Source: a virus
Length of the DNA: 64,000 nucleotides
Reading direction: 5' to 3' (one strand)
Virus record (IMG/VR): IMGVR_UViG_3300042691_047309
Span: 1-64,000 of that record
A model generated the notes under the pieces. It saw only the letters and a list, made by a program, of their open reading frames with translations, did not search any database and was not told the DNA's origin. Position numbers and translations under genes: made by a program. Below are positions 2,177-63,293 of the stretch, piece after piece; position 1 is the stretch's first letter, and each line of letters starts with the position of its first letter.

Positions 2177-2686
2177 ATGAATTATCTAAAAAAGTTTAAT
2201 GAAGAAGTTGGTTTTGATGATGAGGAAACAAGAGATAGACTTGAAATACCCAATCTTAGAGGAGAATTTGAACCATATAGTCCAACTATGAAACCTTACT
2301 ATGTTCCAAGTGGTAAAATAAATACTTCTACTGAACTTAAAAAAATTCTTTTTAGATATCCTATATTAGAAGATTTTCATAAAGATTCAAAAAGAATAGA
2401 AGGTTCTATTTTAGAATCTTTTTATGCAACAAGTAAAACTCCTGTTAATGGAGAAGATTTTTACGCACAATTATCATTTGCTTTTCATGAAGGTCAGTAC
2501 TATATTGGTACTATTCTCAGAGATAGGTTGGATTGGAATAATGAAGAAAAATGGGTAAAGCATACTTTCTTTTTTGATAAAATAGAAGAGACTTTTTCGG
2601 TTGCAGAATCTTTTTTAAAATGTTGCGATAAACTTGGAATACTAGATTCTGATGATTTATCAAAATTTGACTCACTTTTTAATTAA
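2177..2686 (+). CDS. hypothetical protein with N-terminal capsid-targeting-like tag
   Basis: MNYLKKFNEE start; TTAATATATAG upstream. Confidence 0.65.
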   Translation: MNYLKKFNEEVGFDDEETRDRLEIPNLRGEFEPYSPTMKPYYVPSGKINTSTELKKILFRYPILEDFHKDSKRIEGSILESFYATSKTPVNGEDFYAQLSFAFHEGQYYIGTILRDRLDWNNEEKWVKHTFFFDKIEETFSVAESFLKCCDKLGILDSDDLSKFDSLFN

Positions 2687-2709
2687 TTTTTCATTTTTTT
2701 CTTAAAATA

Positions 2710-2741
2710 TTTGGTGAAATTAAATTCTTGCCTTATCTTTG
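2710..2741 (+). promoter_or_regulatory. Bacteroidota-type promoter for the tRNA-Tyr-like gene
   Basis: TTTG-N20-TATCTTTG. Confidence 0.75.
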
Positions 2742-2754
2742 TATTCACAACGAT

Positions 2755-2842
2755 GGGGAAGTTCCAGAGCGGCAAATGGAGTTACATAGTAATGTGACTG
2801 GTCTCAAAAGATCTTCGGTGGTTCGAGTCCAACCCTTTCCCA
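2755..2842 (+). tRNA. atypical tRNA-Tyr-like gene (8-nt anticodon loop ATAGTAAT, bulged T-stem)
   Basis: Acceptor GGGGAAG/CTTTCCC+A, Tyr-type D arm CCAGAGCGGCAAATGG, long variable arm, TTCGAGT T-loop. Confidence 0.7.
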
Positions 2843-2862
2843 CAAAATAAAATAAAAAAAGA

Positions 2863-2894
2863 TTTGGTAGATTGAAAAAGTTTACTTATCTTTG
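2863..2894 (+). promoter_or_regulatory. Bacteroidota-type promoter for a small structured RNA
   Basis: TTTG-N20-TATCTTTG. Confidence 0.75.
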
Positions 2895-2982: not shown

Positions 2983-3064
2983 AAAATTAGACATTTAAGA
3001 TAGCCTAATCGGAAACAAATCGGAAACGTCTGATATAAGTTAAACAAAAATTTTTACAAAAAGA

Positions 3065-3096: not shown

Positions 3097-3134
3097 TAAA
3101 ACAAATAAGAAATAAGAAATATAAAAATACACAT

Positions 3135-3207
<73 letters not shown>

Positions 3208-32805: not shown

Positions 32806-33641
32806 TACATTTTCAATAATATTTTTAAAGTATAATCATATATCGGTCTTGAAGTGTCAAAATATCTTTCATCCCTTGAAAAGGGCCAAAGAACTTCTTC
32901 ATAGTCTAATTCTGCTGTAATCAAGTCAATTCTATCATCTAATTCTTTTTCTAAGTCTAATAAACTCATTTGACCTGTTCTGTGAGAATCTACCGATGAC
33001 CAACCACCAATGTCAATTACCACACCTGGTTGATACATACTAAGAACATTTTCAGGAGAATATAATTTTAATTTTCTCATCTCATATTCTTTAAGTTCAG
33101 TAAATTCTGAGAAGTCAAAATTCTGACATTGCCACTTTTTATCTGTAACAAATTCAGATTCTGGTGCTGTTCTAAAATTGACTTCAGTATCTATCAATCT
33201 TGAACAAGATACCGTTGGTCTTACAATTTCAAAAATTATATTATGTAAAATATAACTTTTTCTTTTCATATCATCTGATTCAAAAATAGGCATAGTTCCA
33301 TTATACTTAAGCTCGTTAATATCATTTACTCTATCATAATCTCCATAAAGAACGGCACAATAAATATTCTTTTCTTTTTCATCAGGTAGAGTGTCATAGA
33401 TTTCAAGCATCGCATCTTTTATATGATTCAAATCAACTTCTGAAAGTATTTGAAACATTCTATCAACATGAGACTTTATTTTCTGCCACCAACCATCTCC
33501 TACAAAATGGTCAGTCCATCTTTCTAATTGTGATATATCATTATTTGACCAGTGATTATTTCTAAGATAATCATAGAAATCAAAAATAGAATATTCTTTT
33601 TGAGACTCTAAAAAAGATTTATATGTTTCTAATTTTTTCAT
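32805..33641 (-). CDS. N-tagged hypothetical protein
   Basis: MKKLETYKSFLES. Confidence 0.7.
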   Translation of the reverse strand: MKKLETYKSFLESQKEYSIFDFYDYLRNNHWSNNDISQLERWTDHFVGDGWWQKIKSHVDRMFQILSEVDLNHIKDAMLEIYDTLPDEKEKNIYCAVLYGDYDRVNDINELKYNGTMPIFESDDMKRKSYILHNIIFEIVRPTVSCSRLIDTEVNFRTAPESEFVTDKKWQCQNFDFSEFTELKEYEMRKLKLYSPENVLSMYQPGVVIDIGGWSSVDSHRTGQMSLLDLEKELDDRIDLITAELDYEEVLWPFSRDERYFDTSRPIYDYTLKILLKM

Positions 33642-35344: not shown

Positions 35345-35766
35345 TAAAATGCTCTTCGTCGTTCTTTTTTATTTTTAAATATTTCGATAAATATATAATC
35401 TCTATATTCTGAAAATTGCAATTTATAATCAGGATATTTATCTGATAATCTTTTTAGACTAACTTTGACTTCTTGTAATAACTCGTTGTTAGTGTTATGA
35501 TTTTCAATATGGTTATAAATAGAAGAATTTTGGTCACCAATAAGATTTGCTGTCTTAGCAGTTTTGTGGTCTATATCAACTATCGTTTTTAATGTAATAG
35601 TTATATATGGTTCTGTTTGATCACCCATCAACATGGAGACTGAATCTCTTTCTATTAATTTTATTTCAGCTCTCTCATCATCTAATAATTCGGCAAAACA
35701 TTGATAAACATAATCATAATCTATGTAATCATTTTCACTTTCATTAAATCTTCTTAGCCTTTTCAT
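35344..35766 (-). CDS. N-tagged hypothetical protein, paralogue of 35803-36195
   Basis: MKRLRRFNES; IDYDYVYQCFAELLDD shared. Confidence 0.7.
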   Translation of the reverse strand: MKRLRRFNESENDYIDYDYVYQCFAELLDDERAEIKLIERDSVSMLMGDQTEPYITITLKTIVDIDHKTAKTANLIGDQNSSIYNHIENHNTNNELLQEVKVSLKRLSDKYPDYKLQFSEYRDYIFIEIFKNKKERRRAF

Positions 35767-35802: not shown

Positions 35803-36195
35803 TTAAAATGGATATTGTTCTTTTTTCTCTTCACCACCAAATATGTTAATATGAATTGAATAACCAAATATGTCAAAATTAATTTTATAAGTTGGATATT
35901 CTTCTGATAATCTATTTAAAGCAACTTCAACTTCTTGTAACAATTCGCTATTTGATTTTACGCCGTTTATGTAGTCAAATAATTTAGACCTTTCAATAGT
36001 GACAGTTCCTCCGTTATCTCTTCTTTCTGGATTAGATTGATTAATTTTCAAATCTATGGTAATATACTTTTGATAATCATTTTCAAATTCTCTAATTTGT
36101 GCTTTATTATCATCTAACAATTCAGCGAAGCACTGATAAACATAATCATAATCTATATCAATTTTACTTTCATTAAATCTTCTTAGTCTTTTCAT
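35803..36195 (-). CDS. N-tagged hypothetical protein, paralogue of 35344-35766
   Basis: MKRLRRFNES; ELLQEV..L.RLS..YP.YK shared. Confidence 0.7.
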   Translation of the reverse strand: MKRLRRFNESKIDIDYDYVYQCFAELLDDNKAQIREFENDYQKYITIDLKINQSNPERRDNGGTVTIERSKLFDYINGVKSNSELLQEVEVALNRLSEEYPTYKINFDIFGYSIHINIFGGEEKKEQYPF

Positions 36196-36662
36196 TATAT
36201 TTCTTCTATTTTATATTTCATAAATCTCATAAACTTGTTATGTAATTCATTTCTATCCTCTACATTAAATACAAGGTTATTAACTTTCATGTAACTAACC
36301 ATTCTTGGAAAATCATCTATTTTAGATATCTTATAACCTAAGTAGTCTAAACTATCTTCTAAGTGTTGATATTCTTCTGGATAAATCCTACTCAAATCTC
36401 CAGTTGTTTGTTTATAAACAAACATGTCAAATCCACTTTCATCTGGAACTAATTTTATTAAAAATAAAAAAGAACGTTCTTTTTCAGGTACACTATTTAA
36501 AAATTCATCTATGTCTAAATTAATAAAGAATATATCTTTACTATCATCATTTTTTATAACAGCTATCTTATAGTCGTCTATTTGATTCTCAAAACAAGAA
36601 AGAATGACTTCTTCTAATTCCTGTTTAGACTCAAATAATTTATATGATTTAAGAAACCTCAT
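36195..36662 (-). CDS. N-tagged hypothetical protein
   Basis: MRFLKSYKLFES; late motif at 36667-36677. Confidence 0.7.
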   Translation of the reverse strand: MRFLKSYKLFESKQELEEVILSCFENQIDDYKIAVIKNDDSKDIFFINLDIDEFLNSVPEKERSFLFLIKLVPDESGFDMFVYKQTTGDLSRIYPEEYQHLEDSLDYLGYKISKIDDFPRMVSYMKVNNLVFNVEDRNELHNKFMRFMKYKIEEI

Positions 36663-38473: not shown

Positions 38474-38749
38474 TTAATAGAAAGTATTTTTCAACTCAAA
38501 TTCAATGTCATCATCATCACTTTTTTCAAAATCAAAATCGAATCCCATATTTACAATATATGATGCGACACAATCAACCATCATTGGATCCGCTCCTCTT
38601 TCTTCCATGTATTTCATATAGTCTTGAATAGTGAAACTACCTTTCTCATTTTTTAGTTTTTGTAATTTAGGTAAAATGTCTTTAGCGATATCTTCATGAA
38701 TATCAGAGTCTAATTTTCCGTAAGATTCAAAAGTTTTTAAATGTCTCAT
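38474..38749 (-). CDS. N-tagged hypothetical protein
   Basis: MRHLKTFES. Confidence 0.65.
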   Translation of the reverse strand: MRHLKTFESYGKLDSDIHEDIAKDILPKLQKLKNEKGSFTIQDYMKYMEERGADPMMVDCVASYIVNMGFDFDFEKSDDDDIEFELKNTFY

Positions 38750-38762
38750 ATCTATATTTTTT

Positions 38763-40829
38763 TTACATTTCTTCTACCCAAGGTTTCTTACCTCTTCTTT
38801 CAAGTTTCTCACACATATCTTTCCACTCATTAGGCTCAAATTTAAGTGCATTTTCTTTTAAGAATTGTCCTACTTGTTTTTTTAAGTCACCATTTGGAAG
38901 TTTTCTTGTATGACCCATCCAAGCAAAAGCATCAACAAATCCAGATTTACAACCTTTTGACATTTGGTCATTTATAATATCCATTCTACCATATTCAGCA
39001 GCCCATTTAACTACAAAGTTTTTACCAGCTTCTTCTGATTTAACTCCATATTTTAATAACATTTGGTATCCAGCAAAATAAGATTCTCCAATCTCTGTAA
39101 GACTTTTCCAAGATCCTTTACAAACTTTTCTGATTGGAAGATTTGAATTAAAGTTAGCATCAGCTCCTGCTTTTAAACAGAATTCTAAAGCATCTTCATC
39201 ACAAACAATGTTATTAAATACATCACCTGTAAGAACCGCGTGATTAGAAACTAACAACTTAATCATTTCCATATCTTTAGCTTTAGCAATTGCTGAATCA
39301 GCTCCTTTTTGTAAGTTAGGTGTTCCACCCAACGCAAAAATCATTTTAACTCTTTCTATATCATTATCTTCAACAGCATTGATAAGAGCTTTTCCATTAT
39401 CTCTATTTATGTCAGCTCCAAATTCTTTAACATATCCTTGTAAATCAGCCGCTGTAATAGTCCTTTCTCTACCAGTTTCTGGGTCCGGAATAGTTTTCTT
39501 AATAATAAATCTTTCAGCGTCTTTTGCTCTCTTTCTTCTGTCAATTTCTTCTTGACTAAGAGGTTGTAAGATATCAAAAAGACTATCACCAATCTCGTAT
39601 TCATTCTCCCATTGTTTTAAGAGTGATTTAAACTCACCACCTATATAATTATTATTCACTGTTTGACAAGCACCATTATCCCAACTTCTATTCGGTTTCA
39701 TTGTAATTCCAATAGTCCATCTAGTATTTGTAGATGAAAGATTAAAATTATAAATGTAGTATTGAATATTATACTCACCTAAATAACTATTCCAGTGAGA
39801 CTCGGTATTCACAATACAGTGTGAGCAGTGAGAGTTTAGCATTTTGTTAGCCGCGTAAGAATTGACCTCTACTATCATAATACCAGATACATTGTAAATA
39901 ACTTTACATCCTTTAACACCAAGTAAGTCATTTACTTTATTAATCTTTTCAATTCTATCAGAGTATCCTTCTGTTCCAGAGGCGTCTAAGTGTTGTTTTG
40001 CAGCTCTGATAAACTCAACAAGTGGATTTTCCTCATTATTAAATCTAGCTAATCTACTTCTCCAAACTAATTTTCCAAAATTTGGATTTGGTTTTCCATC
40101 TCTTGTTGTCTCCCAATTATCAACAAGCATTTCGCCAAAGAAAGTTTTCCAAATAATTTCTTTTTTATCATCTGGAGTGATACTTTCAAAACCAACAGCT
40201 ATTTCTATTAGTTGTTCCATTTGAAGTTCAGTTGCTGAGTTAGCAGCTTTTTTCAATTTTGGAGGAAGAGTATCAATAATTTTTTTAACCTTTCTATAGT
40301 CTCCTAATTTATCTAATTCATCCGAAAGAATCTCAGCATTTGTATGATTGTTAGATGGATTTGGAATTGACTCATCTATAAAGTTAATATCAAATTTCTT
40401 TGGAAGTTTATCTAACAAGTCTTTATATTCTATAAGAAGACCATAAAGTCTTTCAACTTCTTCATAAGATATTCCTTCAATGAAATACATATAAACAAAA
40501 TTATAAAGATATCCGATGTTTGGTTGAAAAAGGTCTCTTAGCTTAACAAACTCTTCATTGCGTTCAAGATTTCTAACTTGTTCATCTGTTAATCTAACAT
40601 CTCTCATTTTCATTCTGATTTCGTTAAATTGTTCCGGTGTAAAGTCATTTTTAGAAAGACCTTTCTTTTCACCATTTCTTAATTGGTAATCTAACTCAGA
40701 ATCAACAAATTTTAAATCAGTAGCCAACTTTTTTATAACAAATTGGTCTTTCAAAAACTTTTTTGATTTATCAAGATTCTCATTAAGAGGATGTAAATTA
40801 GTAAATTGGTTATATCTAAATAACTTCAT
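38763..40829 (-). CDS. N-tagged protein with C-terminal ankyrin-like repeats
   Basis: Start moved to MKLFRYNQF...LNEN; GADIN..ALINAV, MIKLLV, AGADAN, WAAEYG repeats. Confidence 0.7.
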   Translation of the reverse strand: MKLFRYNQFTNLHPLNENLDKSKKFLKDQFVIKKLATDLKFVDSELDYQLRNGEKKGLSKNDFTPEQFNEIRMKMRDVRLTDEQVRNLERNEEFVKLRDLFQPNIGYLYNFVYMYFIEGISYEEVERLYGLLIEYKDLLDKLPKKFDINFIDESIPNPSNNHTNAEILSDELDKLGDYRKVKKIIDTLPPKLKKAANSATELQMEQLIEIAVGFESITPDDKKEIIWKTFFGEMLVDNWETTRDGKPNPNFGKLVWRSRLARFNNEENPLVEFIRAAKQHLDASGTEGYSDRIEKINKVNDLLGVKGCKVIYNVSGIMIVEVNSYAANKMLNSHCSHCIVNTESHWNSYLGEYNIQYYIYNFNLSSTNTRWTIGITMKPNRSWDNGACQTVNNNYIGGEFKSLLKQWENEYEIGDSLFDILQPLSQEEIDRRKRAKDAERFIIKKTIPDPETGRERTITAADLQGYVKEFGADINRDNGKALINAVEDNDIERVKMIFALGGTPNLQKGADSAIAKAKDMEMIKLLVSNHAVLTGDVFNNIVCDEDALEFCLKAGADANFNSNLPIRKVCKGSWKSLTEIGESYFAGYQMLLKYGVKSEEAGKNFVVKWAAEYGRMDIINDQMSKGCKSGFVDAFAWMGHTRKLPNGDLKKQVGQFLKENALKFEPNEWKDMCEKLERRGKKPWVEEM

Positions 40830-40833: not shown

Positions 40834-41811
40834 TTATTTTTTCTTTTTTGATTCTCCAGCAAACGGACTTAATAAATGTTTTAGATTCCAAGATGGAATA
40901 AATTTCTTATTATGTTTTTCATAGTCTTCGTATGATTCAATTCCTGAATCTACAACATTTTGATAGTATTGGATATTAGCACCTTGTTTATTTAAGTCGG
41001 ATATTCTATCTCCAATGTCAATTCCTTTGGTCATTTTTCTTAACTTATTCCATTGATCGACCGTTTGTTGTCTTGGAAGAGATTCGTTTACATAATCTAC
41101 AAAGTTTAAAATCTTAGACTCAGATAACTGACCTTTAGACATTTCAATCACCTCTTTTGATGTTGTTGTGAAATAAAGACCGTCTTTTATAAACTCATTT
41201 CTGTTTGCAATTGAAACTCCATTTTTACCAGGAAAAGCCGTTATAACAGAAAGAACTACTTTATCTCCTAATTTACCTAATTTAGCTCCAATAAAACTTA
41301 AAAAGGTAGTTTTTTCACCTTCACCCTGTTTTACTTTAATATTAAATTCATTACCTCTAGAATCTTTGTATGTATAAACATTCATAGATTTAAATTCATC
41401 TGAATTAGCATCTAACTGATGGACATTTTCAACACCAACATCTGTTTTAGAATCTAAACCTAACCATTTAAACTTTTCAGCTTCATCTGGATTTGTAACT
41501 TTTGTTTCACTTGGACCAAACCCTTTGGTCATTTCAGTTGGTTTATTATTTTTAACTAACTCAACGATTGCTTTCTTTAAATCAACTCCTTTATCAAATT
41601 TAGAACCTGGTATAGTTTCTTCAACATGTGAATCTGTTATATGAGATAAATCTCCTAATAATAGAATAAAGTCACCGGATTCATAAACTGTATCTTTATT
41701 TGCCTCAACTTTTCCTTTCAGAAATTGATTATTATCAATCATCGATTGAATTTGAGAGTATATTAATTCTTCCCCATCTTCTACATTTTCAAATAATCTT
41801 ATGTGTTTCAT
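40834..41811 (-). CDS. N-tagged two-domain hypothetical protein
   Basis: MKHIRLFEN; internal second tag LSESKILNFVDYVNES. Confidence 0.7.
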   Translation of the reverse strand: MKHIRLFENVEDGEELIYSQIQSMIDNNQFLKGKVEANKDTVYESGDFILLLGDLSHITDSHVEETIPGSKFDKGVDLKKAIVELVKNNKPTEMTKGFGPSETKVTNPDEAEKFKWLGLDSKTDVGVENVHQLDANSDEFKSMNVYTYKDSRGNEFNIKVKQGEGEKTTFLSFIGAKLGKLGDKVVLSVITAFPGKNGVSIANRNEFIKDGLYFTTTSKEVIEMSKGQLSESKILNFVDYVNESLPRQQTVDQWNKLRKMTKGIDIGDRISDLNKQGANIQYYQNVVDSGIESYEDYEKHNKKFIPSWNLKHLLSPFAGESKKKK

Positions 41812-42242
41812 TGTTGTAATAATTCTTTTATATCATTCAAAAGTTCAGATACATCATCAAATGAACCAGAGAAAGCATATCCGTCTCCACCACAACTAAA
41901 TTCAAAAATAACTTTTGAGTTGTATTTATTTTTACCTTCAGTTCTTCTTTCATACATATCAAATTCATCTGGAATGCTTTCGTAAGTATTATCCATGTTC
42001 ATTCTTACAAAATCATCAGCAATACTTTCAGATTCTTGTTCTGATTTACCTGCTGATATAAGGCTATTGTAAACTAATGTGTTTATAATATTTTCTAATG
42101 TACTTTCAGAACCATAACTGTAACGGGCTTCAACCTTTTCGTTTAGATGGTCCTCAAATTGTTCAAGTGTTGTTTCATCAGTCACTACGAATTCTTCATC
42201 TTCGTTAGATTCAAATAACTTAAATGATTTAATATATTTCAT
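41808..42242 (-). CDS. N-tagged acidic hypothetical protein
   Basis: MKYIKSFKLFES; late motif at 42261-42271. Confidence 0.7.
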   Translation of the reverse strand: MKYIKSFKLFESNEDEEFVVTDETTLEQFEDHLNEKVEARYSYGSESTLENIINTLVYNSLISAGKSEQESESIADDFVRMNMDNTYESIPDEFDMYERRTEGKNKYNSKVIFEFSCGGDGYAFSGSFDDVSELLNDIKELLQQ

Positions 42243-47362: not shown

Positions 47363-47393
47363 AAAAACCTGTTCTTAATTGAACAGGTTTTTT
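47362..47393. terminator. bidirectional terminator
   Basis: AAAAAACCTGTTC-TTAATT-GAACAGGTTTTTT. Confidence 0.8.
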
Positions 47394-47542
47394 ATCTTTA
47401 TCTTTCTTTTAAAATTCTTATGATATGATCCTGATAAGTATTCGGTATATGAAATATTTCTATCTATTTGTTCTGCTACATATTCACTATAAGCAATAGA
47501 TTCAAATAACTTCTCTTTAAGATACTCTTGATATTCTATCAT
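47375..47542 (-). CDS. 55-aa protein with three 14-residue repeats and a C-terminal tag (absent from the ORF track)
   Basis: [55 protein letters not shown]; ATGA overlap with the dnaJ stop. Confidence 0.65.
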
Positions 47543-53940: not shown

Positions 53941-55260
53941 ATGAAGTTATTCAGATATATGGAATTTATAAAAGAAAGCGTTACTCAATACTCTATACCT
54001 TCTTATGAAGAGGCGGTTGAGATGTGCTCTAAACCAGATGCTGCTTTTTATGAATCAAAAACTGAAGTTGATGGTTTTCCAATAAGCATCTTCAATTATA
54101 GACTTGCTCAATTTAGTGATTTTAATCTACCATTGGAGAATAAACCAGAAGTTAAAGCTTTTGAAATGAGAGGTCTTACTTTTGTTTTTAATAAAGATGG
54201 TTCTCTTTATAAAAGATTTGTGCTACTTGAAAAGTTCTTTAACTTGAATCAAGTTCCTAATTCTATGTATTCTGTTGTTAAAGATTACAAAATTCGTTAT
54301 GTTAATAACAAAGAAGATGGTTCTATTGCTTCATTTATTCAATTACCAAATGGAAAGATTATAGGTCGTTCTAAAATGGGGTTTGATAATGACCAAGCAA
54401 ATGGTATAAACAAAATCTATAAAACAAATGCGGATATAAATCAATTTGTTAATTGGTGTTTATCACAAGACATAACTCCGATATTCGAGTATGTCGCGCC
54501 CCACAACCGTGTAGTTTTAAGATACTCACAAGAAGAGCTGATACTTTTAAGACTAAGAGATAACAAGACCGGAAAACATATCGATATCAAAGACCATTTA
54601 GATAAAATTGGTTCAATTAAGATTGCACCTTTTGAGGATGACCACACTTTGGATGACCTAATTGAAAAGTCAAAAACTGAAGCAGAGAGAGAAGGATGGA
54701 TTGTTCAGTTTGATAATGATCACATGCTTAAAATCAAAACTGATTGGTATTGCCAAAGACACGGACTTTTAACAAATGACATTTATAGAGAACATATTAT
54801 TATAGGATATATCTTAGATGATAAGATTGATGATATTTTAGGTCAAATTCCTGAGGATGAAAAAGAAGCACACGAAAGAATACAAAAGATAATTTCAATT
54901 GTTAAAAGAGAAATTAACAATTTAGTTTCACAGATGAATTCTGCTTACTCGGAATTTGTTAAGTCAGGTGCTGATAAAAGAGATTATGCTATTAATCATA
55001 GAGTTGGAAATCCTAACTTTCATTTTGTTATGAGTATGGATAAATATGATAAATTAAAATCTATGTCTAAAGAAGATATATTAGAGTATTATGATTCAGT
55101 TGAAGCTTGGGAAAAGGCAATTGAAAAATATCAACCTTATAACTTAGCTGTTGAGACAATAAGAGATAAAACTAAGAGATTGGAAATAGCCAGAGAATGG
55201 TTAGAATCAAAAGATCCTGGATTATTTTTTAGAGATCCAGAAGAGTCAGAGGAGAATTAA
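53941..55260 (+). CDS. T4 Rnl1-like RNA ligase with N-terminal tag
   Basis: Start moved to MKLFRYMEFIKES; EMRGL, KFFN, motif I KEDGS, FEY, EGWIV, KIK. Confidence 0.85.
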   Translation: MKLFRYMEFIKESVTQYSIPSYEEAVEMCSKPDAAFYESKTEVDGFPISIFNYRLAQFSDFNLPLENKPEVKAFEMRGLTFVFNKDGSLYKRFVLLEKFFNLNQVPNSMYSVVKDYKIRYVNNKEDGSIASFIQLPNGKIIGRSKMGFDNDQANGINKIYKTNADINQFVNWCLSQDITPIFEYVAPHNRVVLRYSQEELILLRLRDNKTGKHIDIKDHLDKIGSIKIAPFEDDHTLDDLIEKSKTEAEREGWIVQFDNDHMLKIKTDWYCQRHGLLTNDIYREHIIIGYILDDKIDDILGQIPEDEKEAHERIQKIISIVKREINNLVSQMNSAYSEFVKSGADKRDYAINHRVGNPNFHFVMSMDKYDKLKSMSKEDILEYYDSVEAWEKAIEKYQPYNLAVETIRDKTKRLEIAREWLESKDPGLFFRDPEESEEN

Positions 55261-55298: not shown

Positions 55299-56111
55299 AT
55301 GAAAATAAAGAAATACATAGAATTCATATCTGAAGAGATTTTTAACCTGACATCATGGCCTTCTTTATTTGATGATGAGAAAAACGGATATGTTCTTCCT
55401 ATGTTATTGTGGTCTGTTGATATTTCTGATGGTTCTTTTAGAGAAGGTGATTATGAAACACCTGTAGCATCTTCGGGTGTCAAATTAGTTAAGAGTTGGA
55501 ATTTAGAAAATAATTTAGTTGGTTCTTACTTTGAATTTATCGGACAAAAAAGAGGAGTAATATTTACACATATTAAAGAAGTTAATTTGGAATTTTGCGA
55601 CTCTAAAGAAAAAGGTTATACGCTTCCGAAAAATTTAAGTGAAAGAGTAAATAATTTATATAACCAGTATGGTTTAGGAACACCTATTTTTGCAACAGTT
55701 GTTAAAGGGTTTGAAGATGGTGTAAAGGTTGTGACCACTGGTTCTAACTGGCACTTAGTTTCTAAATTAGGTATTAAAAAACTAGGAACAACTACATATA
55801 GAGGATTTGTTAGAGAAACAAAAATTCCACTTTATAGTGATGATACTCAAACGCCGGAATCAAAAGAAGCTATTTGGAAAAAACTTTTACAGGATGAAAG
55901 TTGTGAAATAACTATTTGGTCTCAAAATATGAAGAAAGAATTTCCAATTCAAATGGTTGATGGAAATCCTTACTACAATGGAAATATACCTGTTTATTTT
56001 GGAGATAAAGAAATAAACCAACAAGTTTTAGATTTAGCTGGTGAAGACGAAGAGAAGTATAAAAAGATGAAATCTCTAACAAAAAACTTAAAATTGAAAT
56101 CAGTCAAATGA
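55299..56111 (+). CDS. N-tagged protein, possible GNAT-like fold
   Basis: MKIKKYIEFISEE; KLGTTTY...LYSD..QT..S...W pattern. Confidence 0.55.
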   Translation: MKIKKYIEFISEEIFNLTSWPSLFDDEKNGYVLPMLLWSVDISDGSFREGDYETPVASSGVKLVKSWNLENNLVGSYFEFIGQKRGVIFTHIKEVNLEFCDSKEKGYTLPKNLSERVNNLYNQYGLGTPIFATVVKGFEDGVKVVTTGSNWHLVSKLGIKKLGTTTYRGFVRETKIPLYSDDTQTPESKEAIWKKLLQDESCEITIWSQNMKKEFPIQMVDGNPYYNGNIPVYFGDKEINQQVLDLAGEDEEKYKKMKSLTKNLKLKSVK

Positions 56112-56935
56112 AATATCTAAAAACATATACTCTCTTCGAGAGAGTCTCTAATGAGACTAAATTATTTGAAGCATTAGTAGAAGATATTACTTTTATTAGA
56201 ATGTCTCATACCGATATGTTAAATGGTAGAGAAGCAGGTTGGTATCAACCAAAACAAAGAAGAATGATAGGTCCTGATACTTTTAATGACTCTTTGGTAA
56301 AAGCTGGATTCCCTGATAAACAAAGTTGTGTTCATTTTATGTCGGAGTCATCTTACGATGTTGGGTACTCTTATATTTATGGTAAAAATTTATTTCAAGT
56401 GGTAATAGATGATAAATCTAAATTAGGATGGTCATTTGTTGCTCCAATAAATGATTGGTTTTATAAAGGAAATTCTATTCAAAACTCACTTAGAAGTGGA
56501 AATGAATTGGTGTCTGATATTATGAAAAGTACATTTAATAAGATATATGCTGATTCTCAAACTGGTGAGGGTGTTGATGAGTCATTAAATTATTTGTTAG
56601 ATTTTAAAGCTATAGGAACAGGAACAATTGAAGATTTAAAAAGGTCACCACACTTTGGGAAATATAATTTATATGTTTGGACAACTGATAAAGTATATCT
56701 TAAAAGATATGTTAAAGAAAGTGAGATAAAGGAAAAAGAACCAAAACCTTATAAAAATCAACCAGTTTTAGATACTGAAGATTTTACTGAAAGAGGAATT
56801 AAACCAGAGGAAATTGGTAATTTTTATCAATCTGAGTGGGGAAGAAGATTTAAAAGACTTCAACCTACTGCAGATTACAATTTAAGAAGAGAAGAAGCTC
56901 TAAAACTTTTAGATGAATGGATAAAAACAAGATGA
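56108..56935 (+). CDS. N-tagged hypothetical protein (double-tag cassette)
   Basis: MKYLKTYTLFERVSNETKLFEA. Confidence 0.7.
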   Translation: MKYLKTYTLFERVSNETKLFEALVEDITFIRMSHTDMLNGREAGWYQPKQRRMIGPDTFNDSLVKAGFPDKQSCVHFMSESSYDVGYSYIYGKNLFQVVIDDKSKLGWSFVAPINDWFYKGNSIQNSLRSGNELVSDIMKSTFNKIYADSQTGEGVDESLNYLLDFKAIGTGTIEDLKRSPHFGKYNLYVWTTDKVYLKRYVKESEIKEKEPKPYKNQPVLDTEDFTERGIKPEEIGNFYQSEWGRRFKRLQPTADYNLRREEALKLLDEWIKTR

Positions 56936-57702
56936 GATACTTAAAAACATACAAATTATTTGAATCCAACTGGTATGATATGAAAGACCATATCAAAGTC
57001 CTTTCAGATATGTCACTTTCACTATGGGATAGAGATTTTAATGTTCAGGTCGCTGATGAGATTATAAGTAGAGAACACCAATGTGTAGTTGTCAATATAG
57101 TTAAAAAAGGTTCTACTAAATTTACTTTTCCAGTAATTAAAGAAGAGTTATTAGAAATGGTGGATTATATGGATAGTGAAGGTTGGGAAGTTTTAAATAT
57201 TGAATTGAGTGATTTATCTTCTGGTTACTTTTATTGTTATTTAGAAGGAGATAAATTACTTGCTCTTCATACAGATAGAGAAATCACGGAAGAATTTGAC
57301 CAACTCATAGTTAAGTTTGTTGAAAAACGAGAAGTTAAAACAAACGAATCTACTGAAGAAGATGTTCATAGAGAGATGATGATTAAAAAGTATGGTTTAG
57401 AAGAAATAGAGGAGTGTGATGAGGTTATTAGAAATATTAGTGATATGGGTTTAGAAGTCGAAGACTTAGGTATAACTGTATTAGTTGGTTATAGTCCTAT
57501 GACTTATATGTCTGCTGAATCAACTCCTAAAATTTCAGTTAGTGTTATTGCTGATGCAATACTTTTTGCGGGAAATATTGCTGATATAGATATTTTCACA
57601 GATACATTATTGAGTTATGTAAAATCATTAGGTTTTTCAACAGGTAAAAACACTTTTACAACAGACCGAAAAATGACAAGGCAAATTCTAATACAAAAAT
57701 GA
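56932..57702 (+). CDS. N-tagged two-domain family protein
   Basis: MRYLKTYKLFES; internal KTNES; second domain paralogous to 57699. Confidence 0.7.
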   Translation: MRYLKTYKLFESNWYDMKDHIKVLSDMSLSLWDRDFNVQVADEIISREHQCVVVNIVKKGSTKFTFPVIKEELLEMVDYMDSEGWEVLNIELSDLSSGYFYCYLEGDKLLALHTDREITEEFDQLIVKFVEKREVKTNESTEEDVHREMMIKKYGLEEIEECDEVIRNISDMGLEVEDLGITVLVGYSPMTYMSAESTPKISVSVIADAILFAGNIADIDIFTDTLLSYVKSLGFSTGKNTFTTDRKMTRQILIQK

Positions 57703-57781
57703 GAAAGTTAAAAACATATCAAAATTTTAATGAATCTACTGAAGAAGATGTTCATAGAGAAATGATGATTAAAAAGTATGG
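57346..57781 (+). repeat. 50-nt near-identical direct repeat (57346-57395 and 57732-57781)
   Basis: GAATCTACTGAAGAAGATGTTCATAGAGARATGATGATTAAAAAGTATGG, one mismatch. Confidence 0.85.
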
Positions 57782-58124
57782 ATCAGAAGAAATAGAAGAG
57801 TGCGACTCAGTTATAAGTGATGTAAAAGATATGTTATTAGAATTAAATGATTTAGAAATTTTTACAATTATAGATTATACATCAATGACATATATGTGTT
57901 TTGAAAAGACATCACCTAAGTTATTTCTAAATATTAAGTGTGGTAGTAAATTATGGGATTCTAATGAGAGTTTAATTGATGGTGTGATTTCCACAATAAA
58001 AGAATTTGTTAGAAGTTATGGATATAGTATCGGAACCAATGTTAAAAAAGAAGAAAAACGGCAAGTTACTATTCCAATTACTGACATATTTGAGGTTGAA
58101 TATCAAATGTTAATACAAAAATGA
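57699..58124 (+). CDS. N-tagged family protein
   Basis: MRKLKTYQNFNES; KDMLLELND. Confidence 0.7.
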   Translation: MRKLKTYQNFNESTEEDVHREMMIKKYGSEEIEECDSVISDVKDMLLELNDLEIFTIIDYTSMTYMCFEKTSPKLFLNIKCGSKLWDSNESLIDGVISTIKEFVRSYGYSIGTNVKKEEKRQVTIPITDIFEVEYQMLIQK

Positions 58125-59407
58125 AAAAGTTAAAAACATATAAGAGATTTTTAGAATCTAATTCTGAAGACATTAGTGAAGTTATGAGTGTCTTAAATGA
58201 CATGTCATTGGAATTAAGAGACAAAGGCTTTTTTGTTGAACAACAATCTTTATCATATGGAAAAATGGGAGTAATAAAGGGGTTTAGAATTGTCGTTGTA
58301 AAATCAAATGATGGTGGTGGTTTTATGTGGCATAATACAAAAAAATTTTACTTTCAGGACATTAAAGAAAATATATTAGAAATGACAGAATATTTAGAAT
58401 CTGAAGGATTTTCTATAGATACAATTGATTTTATTGATGATTCTGGTGTTGTTGATGGTATTTTAAAAGATGGTAATTTATATAACAATTTTTCAAAAGA
58501 AGAGGTAAATCACCTGACAGATGGCTTTATAATTAGGTTCATTAAATCAGATAAAACTAATGAATCTTCTGACAAACCAAGACAGACGGAATCTGATAAT
58601 CTTAATTTAACGAATAAATTTAATTTTGTTATTGGTAAAGAATATTCATTTGATGAATTACCACAAAATATAAAAGATGATATTTATATACAATTTGACG
58701 AATACTCTGATTTACAACCCGAAGACTATTACTATGTTGCTAAATTATTAAAACCAGAAGAAACAGAAGAATATTTACATAATCAATTTGGTGAATATAA
58801 CATTCAAGACGCACTTGAAGAACCGTATATGAAAAAAATTATTAGAGATATCCAAATAAATGGTTTAGATTATCCAGCTGTTGGAATAGAAGGAAATCAT
58901 AGAGCATTGGCTTTTTTGTATTTGAAAAAAGACTTACCATATTTAGAAATGATTGAGATTGCTAAATTGGATAAAACTAACGAATCATCTTCGGAAAGAT
59001 GGTCAAACACACAACAACAACTTAGAGAAGATAGTAATTTTATTTCTGACACTTGTTTAGAATTAGATGATAAAGGATTTAAAACTTGTGGAGCTCGAAC
59101 TCAAACAAATAAAATTAATGTCGTTCAATTTGGTCAGAGTCCAGTGTTGAAAATTAATGAAACTACACCTTATTTTATTATTGGACATCCTGTAGGTAGA
59201 TACTTCAAATTCTCGGAGATAAAAGATGAGCTTCTACAAATCAAATCTTATTTGGGTGATAGATGGATAAAATGTGGCGTTCTGTATGAGTTTTCACATG
59301 AGAGAATAGAGGTCTTTATAGATGAAAAAGATTATGACCATTTAGATGATTGGTTTCAAACTTCAGCTGCAGGAATTATAAATCTGGTTGTGTTCTTTAA
59401 TATATAG
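58121..59407 (+). CDS. N-tagged three-domain protein (family + ParB/Srx-like + family)
   Basis: MKKLKTYKRFLES; two DKTNESS junctions; middle GLDYPAVGIEGNHRALA. Confidence 0.7.
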   Translation: MKKLKTYKRFLESNSEDISEVMSVLNDMSLELRDKGFFVEQQSLSYGKMGVIKGFRIVVVKSNDGGGFMWHNTKKFYFQDIKENILEMTEYLESEGFSIDTIDFIDDSGVVDGILKDGNLYNNFSKEEVNHLTDGFIIRFIKSDKTNESSDKPRQTESDNLNLTNKFNFVIGKEYSFDELPQNIKDDIYIQFDEYSDLQPEDYYYVAKLLKPEETEEYLHNQFGEYNIQDALEEPYMKKIIRDIQINGLDYPAVGIEGNHRALAFLYLKKDLPYLEMIEIAKLDKTNESSSERWSNTQQQLREDSNFISDTCLELDDKGFKTCGARTQTNKINVVQFGQSPVLKINETTPYFIIGHPVGRYFKFSEIKDELLQIKSYLGDRWIKCGVLYEFSHERIEVFIDEKDYDHLDDWFQTSAAGIINLVVFFNI

Positions 59408-59410: not shown

Positions 59411-59839
59411 ATGAAATTTTTAAAACCATATACTAAGTTCAACGAAGGTTTATCTGATTATCAAATCGAACAACTTGAAGAGGATAAAAATTTCATTTCA
59501 GATACACTTTTAGAATTGAAAGATAAAGAATTCCGTATAAATGTAGAGCATAATGTGAATTCTATAATAGGTAAGGTATTTATTGATTCTTTATCAATAA
59601 CTGAACCTATGCCTATATTAATAATAGGTGCTCCTGAAAATTCTCAATTTCAATTTTCAGATGTAAAAGACGAACTTCTACAAATTAAATCTTATTTGGA
59701 TGATAGATGGTATAAGTGTGGTGTTATGTTTAACTCGGAAATAATTGATGTTTTAATAGATGAAAAAGATTATGACAATCTAGATGATAAAACTTCAGCG
59801 GGTGGAATATTTTATTTGGCTGTATTTTTTAATATATAG
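59411..59839 (+). CDS. N-tagged family protein, paralogue of the last domain of 58121
   Basis: MKFLKPYTKFNEG; KDELLQIKSYL.DRW.KCGV shared. Confidence 0.7.
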   Translation: MKFLKPYTKFNEGLSDYQIEQLEEDKNFISDTLLELKDKEFRINVEHNVNSIIGKVFIDSLSITEPMPILIIGAPENSQFQFSDVKDELLQIKSYLDDRWYKCGVMFNSEIIDVLIDEKDYDNLDDKTSAGGIFYLAVFFNI

Positions 59840-59842: not shown

Positions 59843-60316
59843 ATGAGACATTTAAAATCATACAAATTATTTGAATCAGTATCTGAGCAAACAGTAAGAG
59901 ACATATTATTAGAGATAACTGATGATAGTAATTTCAATGTTGAAATCAAAGAAGTAGATAATCATTTAGAAGTTTATATAACGAGAGGATCTTTTTTAGA
60001 TGGAAGAAAAACGAGAGAAATACCAGGAGCTCCTACTCCTCCAGGTAGTGGATATCCAGCTAATTTATTTTTATGGTTTGAAATAAAAGACACTATTATA
60101 AGATTATGTGAGTATGTTTATTCAGAAACTGATTTAGAACCGATTGAGAATAAACCATTTCAACAATGGTATTTACAACAGGGACATTTTGCAAAATCAC
60201 CATTTAGAATGAAAAATGGTGGAACCGAGTTTGGTATAGGATGGCACAAAGCAGAAGATTTTACTTTAGGTGATTTTATTTCTTTTACTGGTCTAAAATT
60301 AATAATTAAGTTGTGA
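59843..60316 (+). CDS. N-tagged family protein
   Basis: MRHLKSYKLFES; RDILLEITDD. Confidence 0.7.
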   Translation: MRHLKSYKLFESVSEQTVRDILLEITDDSNFNVEIKEVDNHLEVYITRGSFLDGRKTREIPGAPTPPGSGYPANLFLWFEIKDTIIRLCEYVYSETDLEPIENKPFQQWYLQQGHFAKSPFRMKNGGTEFGIGWHKAEDFTLGDFISFTGLKLIIKL

Positions 60317-61179
60317 AATACTTAAGAAGAATAAATGAAAGTTTGAATTCTAAAACTCTAACTAAACAAGAAGTTATTGAGTTATTGGAAAGAAACTGCC
60401 AAAAGTTTTTAAGTTATCCTAATAAAAATCAATCCAATCTCATATTCAGAAAAGATGAGGACCGTGGAGATTTTGCCTTAGTTAATCCTAAGTTATCAAC
60501 TTCTAAAAGAATTGCTCCTTATGCTCCAACAAATGTTCATAATTTACTTATTTCCAATTTAGATTCTTGGAAAGGTTGGCCTCGTAGAAATAAATCTTTG
60601 ATTTTTGCTTCTGATAAAGCGGCACTCTATCATAGCTCTGAGAATGAAGATTTGATTGTTGATTATGTTGTAATTCCATTTGATAGTACAAAAATAGCAA
60701 CCGGAGATAGAAGTGATTTTTGGGATTGTTTTGGAAAAATTCCAAACAGAAAGCAATTTCACAAAGATTTTTCACCAGACAACTATCCGAGACCTAGTAT
60801 TGCTTGGTATATCCGGAATTTAATGTTCGATTTAGAAATTAAAGAAGAATACCCAGAGACTGATTGGCAAAAAATAAAAACATTATTAGAAGAGGCCGAA
60901 CTTGTTGACCAAACACTTATTAAAAAATACTTTGAGATCGAAGGAGAAATTGTTTGGAATCCTAATATGAATCTTTTGGAAAACCTGAATCATATTTTAG
61001 ATCCAATTTATAACGATTTTAAATTAGGTGATGTTACTTCAACTATGGACTTATACTCACAATTAAATCCTAATGATTCTGACTATCTTAAAACTGCTTT
61101 AGAATCTTGGTCTGAAGATGAGGTCATACTTATAAAGTATAATATGTTAAATGAAATTTTAAATGAATTAGAATCATGA
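60313..61179 (+). CDS. N-tagged hypothetical protein, paralogue of 62242
   Basis: MKYLRRINES; KTLT, SNL.SWK..P, IPFD..KIA shared. Confidence 0.7.
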   Translation: MKYLRRINESLNSKTLTKQEVIELLERNCQKFLSYPNKNQSNLIFRKDEDRGDFALVNPKLSTSKRIAPYAPTNVHNLLISNLDSWKGWPRRNKSLIFASDKAALYHSSENEDLIVDYVVIPFDSTKIATGDRSDFWDCFGKIPNRKQFHKDFSPDNYPRPSIAWYIRNLMFDLEIKEEYPETDWQKIKTLLEEAELVDQTLIKKYFEIEGEIVWNPNMNLLENLNHILDPIYNDFKLGDVTSTMDLYSQLNPNDSDYLKTALESWSEDEVILIKYNMLNEILNELES

Positions 61180-61478
61180 AAAGAATAAAGACATATACTC
61201 TATTTGAGAGAGTCTCTAATGAGACTAAATTATTTGAGTCTGCTCAAAACTGGATAGAGATTGATGGAAAACTTTGTAGAGATTTCGAGTTTTCTGACTT
61301 CAATCAGGCTTTACAATTCATAAATAAAATCTCACAAATTTGTGAATCAGAAAATCACCACCCAGAAATAAATTGGGTTTATAATGAGATAACTCTAAAA
61401 TTATCAACTCATGATGCTGGTGATATTATTACTGAGAAAGATATAAAATTAGCTGAATTGATAGATGAAGTGGCTTAA
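61176..61478 (+). CDS. phhB: pterin-4-alpha-carbinolamine dehydratase with N-terminal tag
   Basis: F.DF..A..F, NHHPEI, STHDAG, DIKLA. Confidence 0.85.
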   Translation: MKRIKTYTLFERVSNETKLFESAQNWIEIDGKLCRDFEFSDFNQALQFINKISQICESENHHPEINWVYNEITLKLSTHDAGDIITEKDIKLAELIDEVA

Positions 61479-62238
61479 GACATATGAGACATTTAGACCA
61501 TTAAATTATCCAATTGGTGTTTTTGATTCTGGATATGGAGGACTTACAATACTAAATCGCTTAAAAAATGACTACCCGGATTGGAATATAATTTATTTAG
61601 GAGATAATCTAACTGCACCATATGGAAATATGAGTGATTCAGAGGTTGTTTTAAACACAAAAAAGTGTTTAGATTTTCTTAACAGTAAAGGTTGTAAAAA
61701 AATAATTTTAGCCTGTAACACAGCTTCTTCAAAATCAGAATTAATTAATAATGATACTATAGATATAATTTCACCTACCAAAGAATTTATTAAAAATTCA
61801 TCATCCAATATTGGTTTAGTTGCTACTAAAAGTACTGTTAATTCTGAAGTTTATAATAGTTCTAATGTCACTCAACTTGCTTGTCCTGACTGGGTTAGAA
61901 TAGTTGAAGAAGCAAACTTTTCAAATGAGTCTGTAAATATAATTAAATCTGATTTAGAAAAATTATTTGAATTGAATTCAGAAATTGAAACTATAATTTT
62001 AGCTTGCACTCATTTTAATGTTTTAAAAAATATAATTAATAGAATAATACCAAGTATTGAAATTATTAGCCAAGATTCTCTTCTGAGTAACTATTTAAAA
62101 ACTATAAAGATGAGTCCAAGTTATGGTGGTCAAGTGGAATATTATACAACTGGTGATAGTCATGAATTCTCAACCGAAACTATGAATATATTCGGAGAAT
62201 CAATTTTAGCAAAATCAATTAGTTTAACAAATATATAA
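61465..62238 (+). CDS. murI: glutamate racemase with N-terminal tag
   Basis: GVFDSGYGG, PYG, ACNTAS, ACTHF (both catalytic Cys present). Confidence 0.9.
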   Translation: MKWLKTYETFRPLNYPIGVFDSGYGGLTILNRLKNDYPDWNIIYLGDNLTAPYGNMSDSEVVLNTKKCLDFLNSKGCKKIILACNTASSKSELINNDTIDIISPTKEFIKNSSSNIGLVATKSTVNSEVYNSSNVTQLACPDWVRIVEEANFSNESVNIIKSDLEKLFELNSEIETIILACTHFNVLKNIINRIIPSIEIISQDSLLSNYLKTIKMSPSYGGQVEYYTTGDSHEFSTETMNIFGESILAKSISLTNI

Positions 62239-62241
62239 GTT

Positions 62242-63012
62242 ATGAGATATTTGAAGAAATATAAAGTATTTGAAAATTATAATAAATTTGGAACTAAAAC
62301 TCTAACTGAAGTAGAGTTTGACCAAATCAGAAAAGAAAATTGTAAAAACTGGACTAAAGTTGAAACTGAACTTTATAGAGGTATGCCTGATTTAGGAGAC
62401 TATTTGATTGTGGATCCCCTAAAAGGTGACTTCAGAAGTTCAATTGAAAATACTAACATTCACTTAGACTTACTTTCAAATTTACCAAGTTGGAAAGATT
62501 ATCCTAAATATGAAAGATGTGTAATAGGAGGAACTCGTGGATCAGCGACTGGTACTTATGGAGAAACTGTCTATGAAATGATACCATTTGACGGTGTTAA
62601 AATAGCAGTTTGTCCAGAATCAACCATCTGGGAATCATTCGGGAATGATGATGATGAATTTGGTGGTGATATTAATTTAGTTGATGGATTCTTATATATA
62701 TATCCTATAGTTTCAGCTCCAGGTGAAACACTAGAAGAGAGATTAAAATCTTTAGGAAAAATTGTCGAAATACCTCATATAGATGGATATCCAGGTGTTA
62801 ATGAATTTCTAATGAGACATGCCGAATTTAGTTGGAAAAAACCAAATGAAATTACTGGTGAAGATTGTTTTAATTTTATTAACAACAGTCTTTTTAATCC
62901 AAAAGTTAGAGGTTTTCAATTATTAAACTATGACCAAAATTTCAAAACTCAAACTGGAAAACAAATTTGGACTGAAGGACCAGTTTTACTTATCAAATCA
63001 CATTTAGTTTAG
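62242..63012 (+). CDS. N-tagged hypothetical protein, paralogue of 60313
   Basis: MRYLKKYKVFEN; LYRG. Confidence 0.7.
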   Translation: MRYLKKYKVFENYNKFGTKTLTEVEFDQIRKENCKNWTKVETELYRGMPDLGDYLIVDPLKGDFRSSIENTNIHLDLLSNLPSWKDYPKYERCVIGGTRGSATGTYGETVYEMIPFDGVKIAVCPESTIWESFGNDDDEFGGDINLVDGFLYIYPIVSAPGETLEERLKSLGKIVEIPHIDGYPGVNEFLMRHAEFSWKKPNEITGEDCFNFINNSLFNPKVRGFQLLNYDQNFKTQTGKQIWTEGPVLLIKSHLV

Positions 63013-63293
63013 AAACTTCTAAAGTCTTTTACACCTCCAATATTCATTAACTTAGGTGCCATATTTTTAATTCCAGATTGTGGTGAAATAGAAGTTATAT
63101 TTTTAAAATCAATTTTATCATACATTAAATCAGGATTTTCTGTAAAATAGTTTGTTAAAAAATCCATATTTTCTTCTTCAGATTTATCTTTATCCCATAA
63201 ATGAAGTAATCTAGTTTTATTCTTTTCAATAAAATCTACAACATCTTTATTTAAAATAGGATTCCAATTTTCAAATTTTTTTAAAAATTTCAT
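63009..63293 (-). CDS. N-tagged hypothetical protein
   Basis: MKFLKKFEN; late motif at 63297-63307. Confidence 0.65.
   Translation of the reverse strand: MKFLKKFENWNPILNKDVVDFIEKNKTRLLHLWDKDKSEEENMDFLTNYFTENPDLMYDKIDFKNITSISPQSGIKNMAPKLMNIGGVKDFRSF

Follow-up and report, generated by a model that had tools for sequence, protein, structure and literature searches.

What does it mean for a phage that about one gene in six opens with a variant of the same short peptide? The question is posed by the first 64 kb (positions 1–64,000, referred to below as the window) of the 175,894-bp IMG/VR record IMGVR_UViG_3300042691_047309, which has ~29% GC and 242 genes. The peptide, a stretch of 10–13 residues at the N-terminus that we refer to as the tag, had been read in an earlier note on this DNA as an address label that loads many enzymes into the phage head. 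We find that the sequence of the tag, its position, its portability, the promoter class of the genes that carry it, and the head module of the phage clade all fit a portable capsid-targeting propeptide of the T4 type, a reading to which we assign a probability of about 0.5. The acts of loading themselves are steps that we infer: that the tag docks to the scaffold and is cleaved, and that the protein behind it stays in the head and is injected. On the sequence evidence set out below, dozens of unrelated proteins are probably packed by this phage.

The record is a fragment of the genome of an uncultured freshwater megaphage, since it is collinear with only 140 kb (positions 418–558 kb) of a 634-kb relative and lacks the head module entirely; the CheckV estimate of 73% completeness is thus probably too high. 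That relative, LR745206.1 (634,780 bp, from an uncultured phage), has homologs of 140 of the 242 record proteins at a median identity of 57%; it is among the four largest genomes reported by Al-Shayeb et al. in 2020 and belongs to the Mahaphage clade, with Bacteroidetes as predicted host (PMC7162821). Because the record is a fragment, it gave no match when searched for families of the T4 protease and Gp23. A PHROG scan of ten large open reading frames (ORFs) outside the window returned a gp6-like baseplate wedge protein as its sole structural match. The head module and most of the counts given below accordingly come from relatives; gene calls are simple ORF picks, and promoter classes are assigned by motif.

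The tag is conserved at the level of protein

The tag occurs in two forms. The pattern of type A is M-[KR]-x-[LI]-[KR]-x-[YF]-x-x-F-E-S, of which a shorter variant ends in F-N-E-S or F-E-S, and type B reads M-K-x-x-x-Y-x-x-F-[IL]-x-E. All 24 ORFs that the earlier note had listed as tagged are real and carry the motif at the start of their products (minus-strand genes were given there by their low, stop-side coordinate). The starts of three genes were corrected: 40829 replaces an upstream TTG at 40862, the ORF opening at 53833 begins at 53941 (the start already given in the note), and the ORF opening at 56917 begins at 56932; the gene at 60313 has a GTG start codon. A profile built from the 24 window tags matched 37–41 of the 242 record genes, 17 of them outside the window, and gave one internal match; with the Met column removed, there were 30 N-terminal against 2 internal matches in 55,873 residues. 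The tag is likewise present on 103–118 of 950 genes of LR745206.1, where nearly all apparently internal matches come after an in-frame Met, and across 80 IMG/VR loci tag matches lie at protein starts in 18 of 18, adjoining head modules.

At a threshold of ≥7 bits, the profile picks out 15% of real genes and none of 322 out-of-frame decoy ORFs beginning with ATG, compared with 0.30% of random peptides of N-terminal composition and 0.46% of shuffled real N-termini. The concern raised in the earlier note, that the motif might be an artefact of AT-rich codons, fails because two other very AT-rich phages with gp21-type proteases have no tags: none were found in Tenacibaculum phage pT24 (28.7% GC, 298 genes) or in Prevotella phage Lak-A1 (26% GC, 275 genes in 280 kb, TAG read as Gln). 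Both genomes were scanned as possible cultured relatives with tags, and they serve here only as negative controls. The codons point the same way as the controls: among 18 ungapped type A tags, the conserved Leu is encoded by TTA, CTT, CTA, CTC, or TTG and the conserved Ile by ATA, ATT, or ATC, while L and I as well as K and R replace each other and Ser is encoded by both TCN and AGY. The tag is conserved at the protein level, not at the nucleotide level.

A near-invariant feature is a Glu, which falls at residue 8, 9, 11, or 12 in 140 of 148 tags and within residues 7–16 in 146. Residue 7 is F or Y in 131 of the 148, residue 10 is most often F (71), and the Glu is followed by S (45%), N (14%), or E (11%) in most cases. 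The combination hydrophobic-x-E is found in 88% of tags, against 29% of untagged protein starts.

Resemblance to known capsid-targeting sequences

The capsid-targeting sequence of T4 is M-K-T-Y-Q-E-F-I-A-E (10.1101/2021.01.19.427310), in which mutagenesis has shown residues 4 and 7 to carry the targeting function and residues 8 and 10 that of processing (PMC9026906). Scored on the model trained on the window, this sequence reaches 11.2–11.7 bits, a value attained by 0–4 of 20,000 composition-matched peptides (top 0.02%). Like the tag, it is an N-terminal peptide of about 10 residues, and the shared pattern consists of two aromatics three apart followed by [IL]-x-E (type B) or L-F-E (type A). 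Further likenesses extend to the cargo and to the phage as a whole: the internal proteins of T4 are unrelated, fast-changing proteins that have the targeting sequence alone in common, their loci in T-even phages being hypervariable with only that sequence conserved (PMC3012670), and among the head proteins of the megaphage clade are a Gp23 capsid protein, a gp20 portal, and a protease probably of the gp21 family.

The two systems also differ. Only a handful of T4 proteins are tagged, but the tag marks 41 of the 242 record genes and over 100 of the 950 genes of LR745206.1; there are two tag forms here, of which the common type A ends in L-F-E-S or F-N-E-S and not in I-A-E; the cargo of the megaphage is acidic and includes whole enzymes; and its protease forms one protein with a scaffold of 14-residue repeats. 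For the megaphage, packaging is predicted from the genes.

A second point of comparison is provided by phiKZ-like phages (phiKZ, 201phi2-1, SPN3US), in which at least 50 species of head-internal protein are cut after Glu by a distant gp21 homolog (PMC5694885, PMC9026906). Their propeptides are thought to target proteins to the prohead, as proposed for the tag, and some paralogs have identical N-termini. However, these propeptides are mostly longer than 100 residues, end in an S/A-x-E motif, and include no single short tag across unrelated proteins, and neither the capsid nor the portal protein of these phages is close to its T4-type counterpart. The tags examined here do not match that design, being 9–13 residues long with S or A at position P3 in very few cases (A in 4 of 148). 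Both the tag of T4 and the long propeptides found in phiKZ-like phages are already well described (PMC9026906, PMC5694885). Within the library searched, no mention of "capsid targeting" was found among the top-listed papers on huge phages, megaphages, or Lak phages, and the Mahaphage paper does not mention a tag of this kind (PMC7162821).

The tag is carried by unrelated proteins

Beyond residue 16, only nine pairs of tagged proteins are similar to each other. The tag is found on six unrelated enzyme types: a T4-type RNA ligase 1 (Rnl1), a 2H phosphoesterase joined to a DEDD exonuclease, a pterin-4a-carbinolamine dehydratase (PCD), a glutamate racemase, a CCA/poly(A)-polymerase-type nucleotidyltransferase, and a class III cyclase, the last two encoded by tagged genes outside the window. 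The earlier note had described the tag as an extra piece ahead of the normal fold. This description holds for Rnl1, whose residues 24–332 align to residues 8–307 of T4 Rnl1, leaving ~16 extra residues, and for the racemase, to which the tag adds 14–16 residues relative to solved structures. It does not hold for PCD, where the tag takes the place of the native N-terminus, which is not conserved, without making the protein longer than its cellular counterparts. In an AlphaFold2 (AF2) model of the racemase with a predicted local distance difference test (pLDDT) score of 92.9, residues 1–10 have a pLDDT of 50 and include a short helix at residues 5–9, and the fold begins at residue 17.

The racemase also offers a view of how the tag was acquired. 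Its five closest homologs (42–66% identity) have tag-like starts just ahead of the conserved P-I-G-V-F-D-S-G, whereas the next closest, MurI proteins of Bacteroidota (36–41% identity), have short unrelated starts; this difference indicates that the racemase is a host-derived enzyme that would have gained its tag within the phage lineage. A more direct trace of movement is seen in two otherwise unrelated genes, which share a 52-nt stretch (56118–56169 and 61186–61237) that is 94% identical, with three mismatches. The shared stretch starts at about codon 5 and stops exactly after the Glu codon of K-L-F-E, direct evidence of a mobile leader module bounded by the proposed cleavage site. The tag is therefore portable, having been bolted onto unrelated folds and moved by recombination.

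The tag also outlasts the proteins behind it. For tagged genes with a homolog in LR745206.1, 19 of 25 homologs pass the tag model and the other six have weaker tag-like starts; orthologs have an identity of 0.60 within the tag, which drops to 0.37 over the 30 residues that follow and is 0.36 for the proteins overall. Between the genes for Rnl1 and DnaK lies a hypervariable array (55299–63293) with 12 tagged genes in 8 kb, none of which has a homolog in LR745206.1; the same place in that genome is occupied by two different tagged genes in 1.9 kb.

Tagged genes share a promoter class with head genes and exclude a second tag

In LR745206.1, a promoter-like [AT]ATATATA motif lies 20–30 nt upstream of the start codons of the portal, protease-scaffold, capsid, and baseplate genes. 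The same motif precedes 46–50% of tagged but 17–19% of untagged genes (p = 1e-4 and 6e-12), and when classes are assigned per operon, 93% of tagged genes in the record and 80% in the relative belong to the [AT]ATATATA class, compared with 0–7% in the Bacteroidota host-type TAnnTTTG class. In many genes (79 in LR745206.1) the promoter-like motif TAATATATA ends 4–5 nt before the ATG, and structural genes have the same motif 16–30 nt upstream; its sites close to an ATG in the window are at 2165–2176, 36663–36675, 38450–38462, 53928–53940, 59399–59410, 59831–59842, 62230–62241, and 63294–63306. By analogy with T4 late promoters, transcription from such sites would start at or next to the ATG and would yield leaderless mRNAs.

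The N-terminal tag has a counterpart at the other end of proteins, R-x-x-K-[IL]-x-x-[IL], which closes 30 proteins in the record and 107 in LR745206.1. The two tags never occur together on one protein (p = 0.004 and 1e-6), and 43–44% of the genes with the C-terminal tag belong to the host-type TAnnTTTG promoter class and 10–11% to the [AT]ATATATA class. Given this lack of co-occurrence and the split in promoters, the N-terminal tag is one of two exclusive labels, and the one tied to the promoter class of head genes; judged from these patterns, the pair look like two address labels with different timing.

Head proteins, protease, and scaffold in the relatives

A T4-type portal, Gp23 capsid protein, and protease-scaffold are present in LR745206.1 and in the 80 IMG/VR loci, all of them relatives of the record. 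In LR745206.1, the portal matches PF07230 (2.7e-57) and the capsid protein the Gp23 family (1.8e-26), with a weak alignment between its N-terminus and the N-terminal segment of T4 gp23. (Directly after the capsid gene stands a tagged gene at 202508–202897 for a 129-aa protein with an NFACT-R RNA-binding domain; PF05670, 1.5e-16.) The first ~265 residues of a 707-residue protein match phrog_207, "head maturation protease" (4e-30), and a tblastn search with this domain found 749 phage records, including the annotated gp21 of S-PM2 and the prohead core protease of many T4-like phages, at 28–36% identity and with E down to 2e-16. An AF2 model of the domain (pLDDT 45.5) is too poor for comparison of folds.

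The remainder of the 707-residue protein is a scaffold, built of ten 14-residue repeats of N-I-A-Y-S-E-Y-[IL]-A-E-N-L-D-K and ending in an acidic tail. The repeat numbers 6–10 copies across 77 IMG/VR relatives, with near-invariant Y, E, Y, [ILV], A, and E and the consensus [ILV]-A-E-[NH]. The pattern [ILV]-x-E-N occurs 13 times in the protease-scaffold, a 15-fold enrichment over the 1.24 per 1000 residues of the whole proteome, and it recurs at the conserved N-terminus of the protease and at two places within the first 50 residues of the capsid protein, which are invariant. From this distribution we infer that the megaphage protease would cut after [ILV]-x-E; gp21 of T4 cuts after L/I-x-E, and an L-I-E stands near its own N-terminus (PMC9026906). 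The window contributes one piece to this picture, a 55-aa mini-gene on the minus strand (47375..47542; repeat model, 16.6 bits) that consists of two scaffold-repeat units after a tag-like start and ends in the C-terminal tag. It matches the repeat region of the protease-scaffold of LR745206.1, a genome with a similar 83-aa gene at 460435–460686, and its repeat units show that the scaffold of this phage is of the kind found in its relatives. The protease-scaffold proteins of pT24 and Lak-A1 are without the Y-S-E-Y-[IL]-A-E-N repeat, so that tag and repeat co-occur in one lineage of the three compared, an association that is suggestive but thin.

A possible connection between tag and scaffold emerges when both are placed on one matrix. 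The T4 tag scores 27 of a possible 35 on the matrix of the megaphage scaffold repeat, a score reached by none of 100,000 random peptides. Type B tags, ~9% of the total, score 15–22 and are strongly repeat-like; over the whole tag set the excess is modest (7.9 against 6.0 for its own shuffles, p = 2e-6), and a hidden Markov model of the repeat run on the tags did not clearly pick them out. That the type B tag and the T4 tag may imitate a scaffold unit is thus a lead and not a result, and because only type B is strongly repeat-like, we do not claim all tags as copies of the repeat. Similar words are found in T4 itself: gp22 (NC_000866.4, 104117–104926) contains E-W-L-A-E-N and several [IL]-A-E sites, including Q-L-I-A-E and K-I-A-E, and the start of Inh has D-Y-I-A-E. 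Both E-W-L-A-E-N and D-Y-I-A-E are close to the end of the T4 tag and to the repeat Y-S-E-Y-[IL]-A-E-N (LR745206.1, 198546–200669), and the T4 targeting sequence may be a copy of a scaffold cleavage unit. Both gp22 and the megaphage scaffold would be cut to short peptides at their [IL]-A-E sites; the two differ in that gp22 is the product of a separate gene without a regular repeat, whereas the megaphage repeat is a 14-residue tandem of 6–10 copies fused to the protease.

Weighing the explanations

As a propeptide of the T4 type, the tag would act in four steps. It would fold at the N-terminus into a short amphipathic helix that combines basic residues with a pair of aromatic or hydrophobic ones spaced three apart; the helix would dock its protein onto the scaffolding core during prohead assembly; a prohead protease of the gp21 family would cut after the conserved Glu, at a hydrophobic-x-E site followed mostly by S or N; and the mature protein would be retained in the head and would enter the host with the DNA. 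Capacity is no obstacle in principle, because a T4 head holds ~1000 molecules of internal protein (PMC3012670) and the ejection proteins of SPN3US amount to more than 40 MDa (PMC7411985).

Several observations weigh against this reading. The phage is uncultured and the case rests on its genes, with a head module taken from relatives at a median protein identity of 57%, outside this record. The tagged fraction, 11–17% of all genes, is far above any known packaged set, and neither the racemase nor PCD has an obvious role as an injected protein. The mature parts of tagged proteins are net acidic (−0.06 per residue), whereas the internal proteins of T4 are basic. At P3 of the putative site, no more than 51 of the 148 tags have L or I, while 45 have F, 18 Y, 15 T, and 4 A, and type A tags resemble the scaffold repeat weakly. 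The protease scores 16.8 bits against Pfam S77 (PF03420), below the cut-off of 27, and neither a single-sequence nor a profile search of the PDB matched it to gp21. (The one hit, ribosomal protein uS7 at E = 0.04, is due to chance.) Finally, the [AT]ATATATA class also covers 35–38% of other genes, including those for DnaJ and a topoisomerase-like protein; because it also drives non-structural genes, the timing of the tagged genes as judged from their promoters is consistent with head assembly but not proven.

A more far-reaching proposal, which we entertain tentatively, sees in the tag one half of a genome-wide peptide address code. Two mutually exclusive labels would together mark more than 20% of the proteins: the N-terminal label, on genes of the late or head-gene promoter class, would mimic a scaffold unit, co-assemble with the scaffold, and be cut at the same site, bringing more than 100 different proteins into each head, while the C-terminal label, on genes with host-type promoters, would send a different set of small proteins to another hub. 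The T4 tag would then be a relic or an offshoot of scaffold mimicry.

The N-terminal tag could instead be a helix that docks its protein elsewhere in the infected cell than on the capsid, for example on the DnaK/DnaJ/GrpE chaperones that the phage itself encodes or in a compartment for replication or assembly. Hsp70 binds amphipathic peptides with basic and hydrophobic residues, which are of the tag's kind, and genes for DnaJ (47539–48618, minus strand), a GrpE-like protein (49473–49940, minus strand), and DnaK (plus strand, from 63421 to the end of the window at 64000 and on to 65304) flank and adjoin the tagged arrays. The mutually exclusive C-terminal tag also shows peptide handles being used for more than one purpose, and the racemase and PCD would be better suited to a cytoplasmic role. 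Such a helix, however, would account neither for the Glu, which is nearly invariant and stands at a fixed distance, nor for the agreement with the T4 tag at the residues mapped there; it also leaves unexplained the edge of the shared leader right after the Glu and the tie to the promoter class of head genes, and we regard it as rather unlikely.

Less probable still is that tagged proteins go to the scaffolding core as assembly factors or as modulators of size and shape, and are then degraded or expelled with the scaffold without being delivered. The T4 core proteins gp67 and gp68 and the propeptides provide the precedent, being cut and lost from the head (PMC9026906, PMC5694885); the two L-F-E sites within the 22-residue leader shared by two of the tagged genes, and the acidity of the mature parts, like that of the scaffold tail, would suit such a role. 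Set against this, many tagged proteins are intact enzymes with their catalytic motifs, among them the Cys pair of the racemase, the lysine motif of Rnl1, the CCA-type enzyme, and the cyclase, which would make odd components of a scaffold.

We give little credence to the view that the tag is a signal for degradation or timing, through which a protease of the cell or of the phage would limit the lifetime of late accessory proteins. Some N-terminal motifs recognized by ClpX do consist of Met, a basic residue, and then hydrophobics, and the tag is exposed and flexible in the racemase model; but such a signal gives no reason for the conserved Glu or the likeness to the scaffold repeat, to mark 11–17% of its own genes for destruction would seem wasteful for a phage, and the tag is conserved above the protein bodies across orthologs.

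An explanation at the level of nucleotides, in which the tag is a translation-start feature of AT-rich, possibly leaderless mRNAs or an effect of AT-rich codons, is very improbable and largely refuted. Half of the tagged genes have a promoter-like motif ending 4–5 nt before the ATG, and AAA is common as second codon in many genes; yet the conserved residues are written in varied and even unrelated codons, 21 tagged genes lie within operons without the motif while 14 untagged genes have it at the same spacing, and neither the decoy ORFs nor pT24 and Lak-A1 have tags. Descent of the whole set from one large, highly diverged paralog family, to which the few true paralogs among tagged neighbours might point, is refuted by the six unrelated enzyme folds of cellular ancestry and by the lack of likeness past residue 16 in most pairs.

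Tagged genes and other features of the window

The tagged gene nearest the start of the window (2177..2686, plus strand, 169 aa) has the short tag M-N-Y-L-K-K-F-N-E-E, with TAATATATA ending 4 nt before its ATG; the N-terminus of its LR745206.1 ortholog has diverged. Further along, tagged genes are found on the minus strand. A type A gene of 245 aa (32068..32805) scores 21.5 bits on the profile and has no Pfam match, and its neighbour of 278 aa (32805..33641) has neither a Pfam nor a PHROG match. The adjoining type B gene (33638..35344, 568 aa) encodes, by Pfam, the 2H phosphoesterase (weakly Acb1-like) with an RNase T-type exonuclease; it matches PF13563 from residue 47 (2.4e-9) and PF00929 (4e-7), falls below the cut-off of PF23474, and has an ortholog that retains the tag. 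Two genes with short tags, 35344..35766 (140 aa) and 35803..36195 (130 aa), are paralogs at 39% identity, and the type A gene 36195..36662 (155 aa), with TAATATATA ending 5 nt before its ATG, heads an operon.

Also on the minus strand, the gene at 38474..38749 (91 aa) has an identity to its ortholog of 0.83 in the tag and 0.43 in the rest. The gene at 38763..40829 encodes 688 aa from the Met at 40829 and has no Pfam match; its product is probably an ankyrin-repeat protein, a lead from the Atlas with a score of 0.98. A gene with a short tag (40834..41811, 325 aa) scores 8.3 bits, and the type A gene 41808..42242 (144 aa), with a promoter motif 19 nt upstream, is the first in the minus-strand array. 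In the middle of this array, behind a TAATATATA motif of its own, lies an untagged gene (36917–38449, minus strand) for a 510-aa protein with a Bacteroidota-type signal peptide and a C-terminal ATPase domain of the histidine-kinase type (PF02518, 8e-11).

On the plus strand, the type B gene for Rnl1 (53941..55260, 439 aa) matches PF09511 (2e-20) and has the K-E-D-G-S motif. The hypervariable array opens with a type B gene of 270 aa (55299..56111), which has no homolog in LR745206.1, followed by the gene (56108..56935, 275 aa) whose 22-residue leader is common to it and the PCD gene, as judged by the sequence identity of the leaders. Next come the genes at 56932..57702 (256 aa) and 57699..58124 (141 aa); that at 58121..59407 (428 aa) has no family match; that at 59411..59839 (142 aa) has a promoter motif ending 4 nt before its ATG; and that at 59843..60316 (157 aa) scores 23.2 bits. 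The gene with the GTG start (60313..61179, 288 aa, short tag) is a paralog of the gene at 62242..63012 (256 aa), and between the two stand the genes for PCD (61176..61478, 100 aa; PF01329, 4.6e-26) and glutamate racemase (61465..62238, 257 aa), the latter identified by family match, homologs, and AF2 model. The last tagged gene lies on the minus strand (63009..63293, 94 aa). The DnaK that follows is 85% identical to that of LR745206.1.

Elsewhere in the window, a 16-kb run of plus-strand genes (10339–26682) contains no gene with the [AT]ATATATA motif just upstream and has few homologs in LR745206.1. The N-termini encoded at 10339–12292 look like those of GDP-sugar dehydratase and epimerase genes, and it is a guess that the remainder of the run consists of glycosyltransferase or methyltransferase genes. 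A stretch at 3054–4500 is non-coding, with one tRNA-Met at 3135–3208 (ARAGORN).

Implications

The likeness between the T4 tag and the megaphage scaffold unit suggests a testable mechanism of docking, scaffold mimicry, for a tag whose partner in T4 is not yet defined. If the proposed function is true, the tags of this clade would provide new short tags for loading foreign proteins into phage capsids. Should the tag work as it does in T4, these megaphages would carry a load of ready-packed proteins by far larger and more varied than that of any other known phage, one that would include RNA-repair enzymes, nucleases, a cyclase, and ankyrin-like proteins, and the injected proteome of uncultured phages could be read straight from their sequence.

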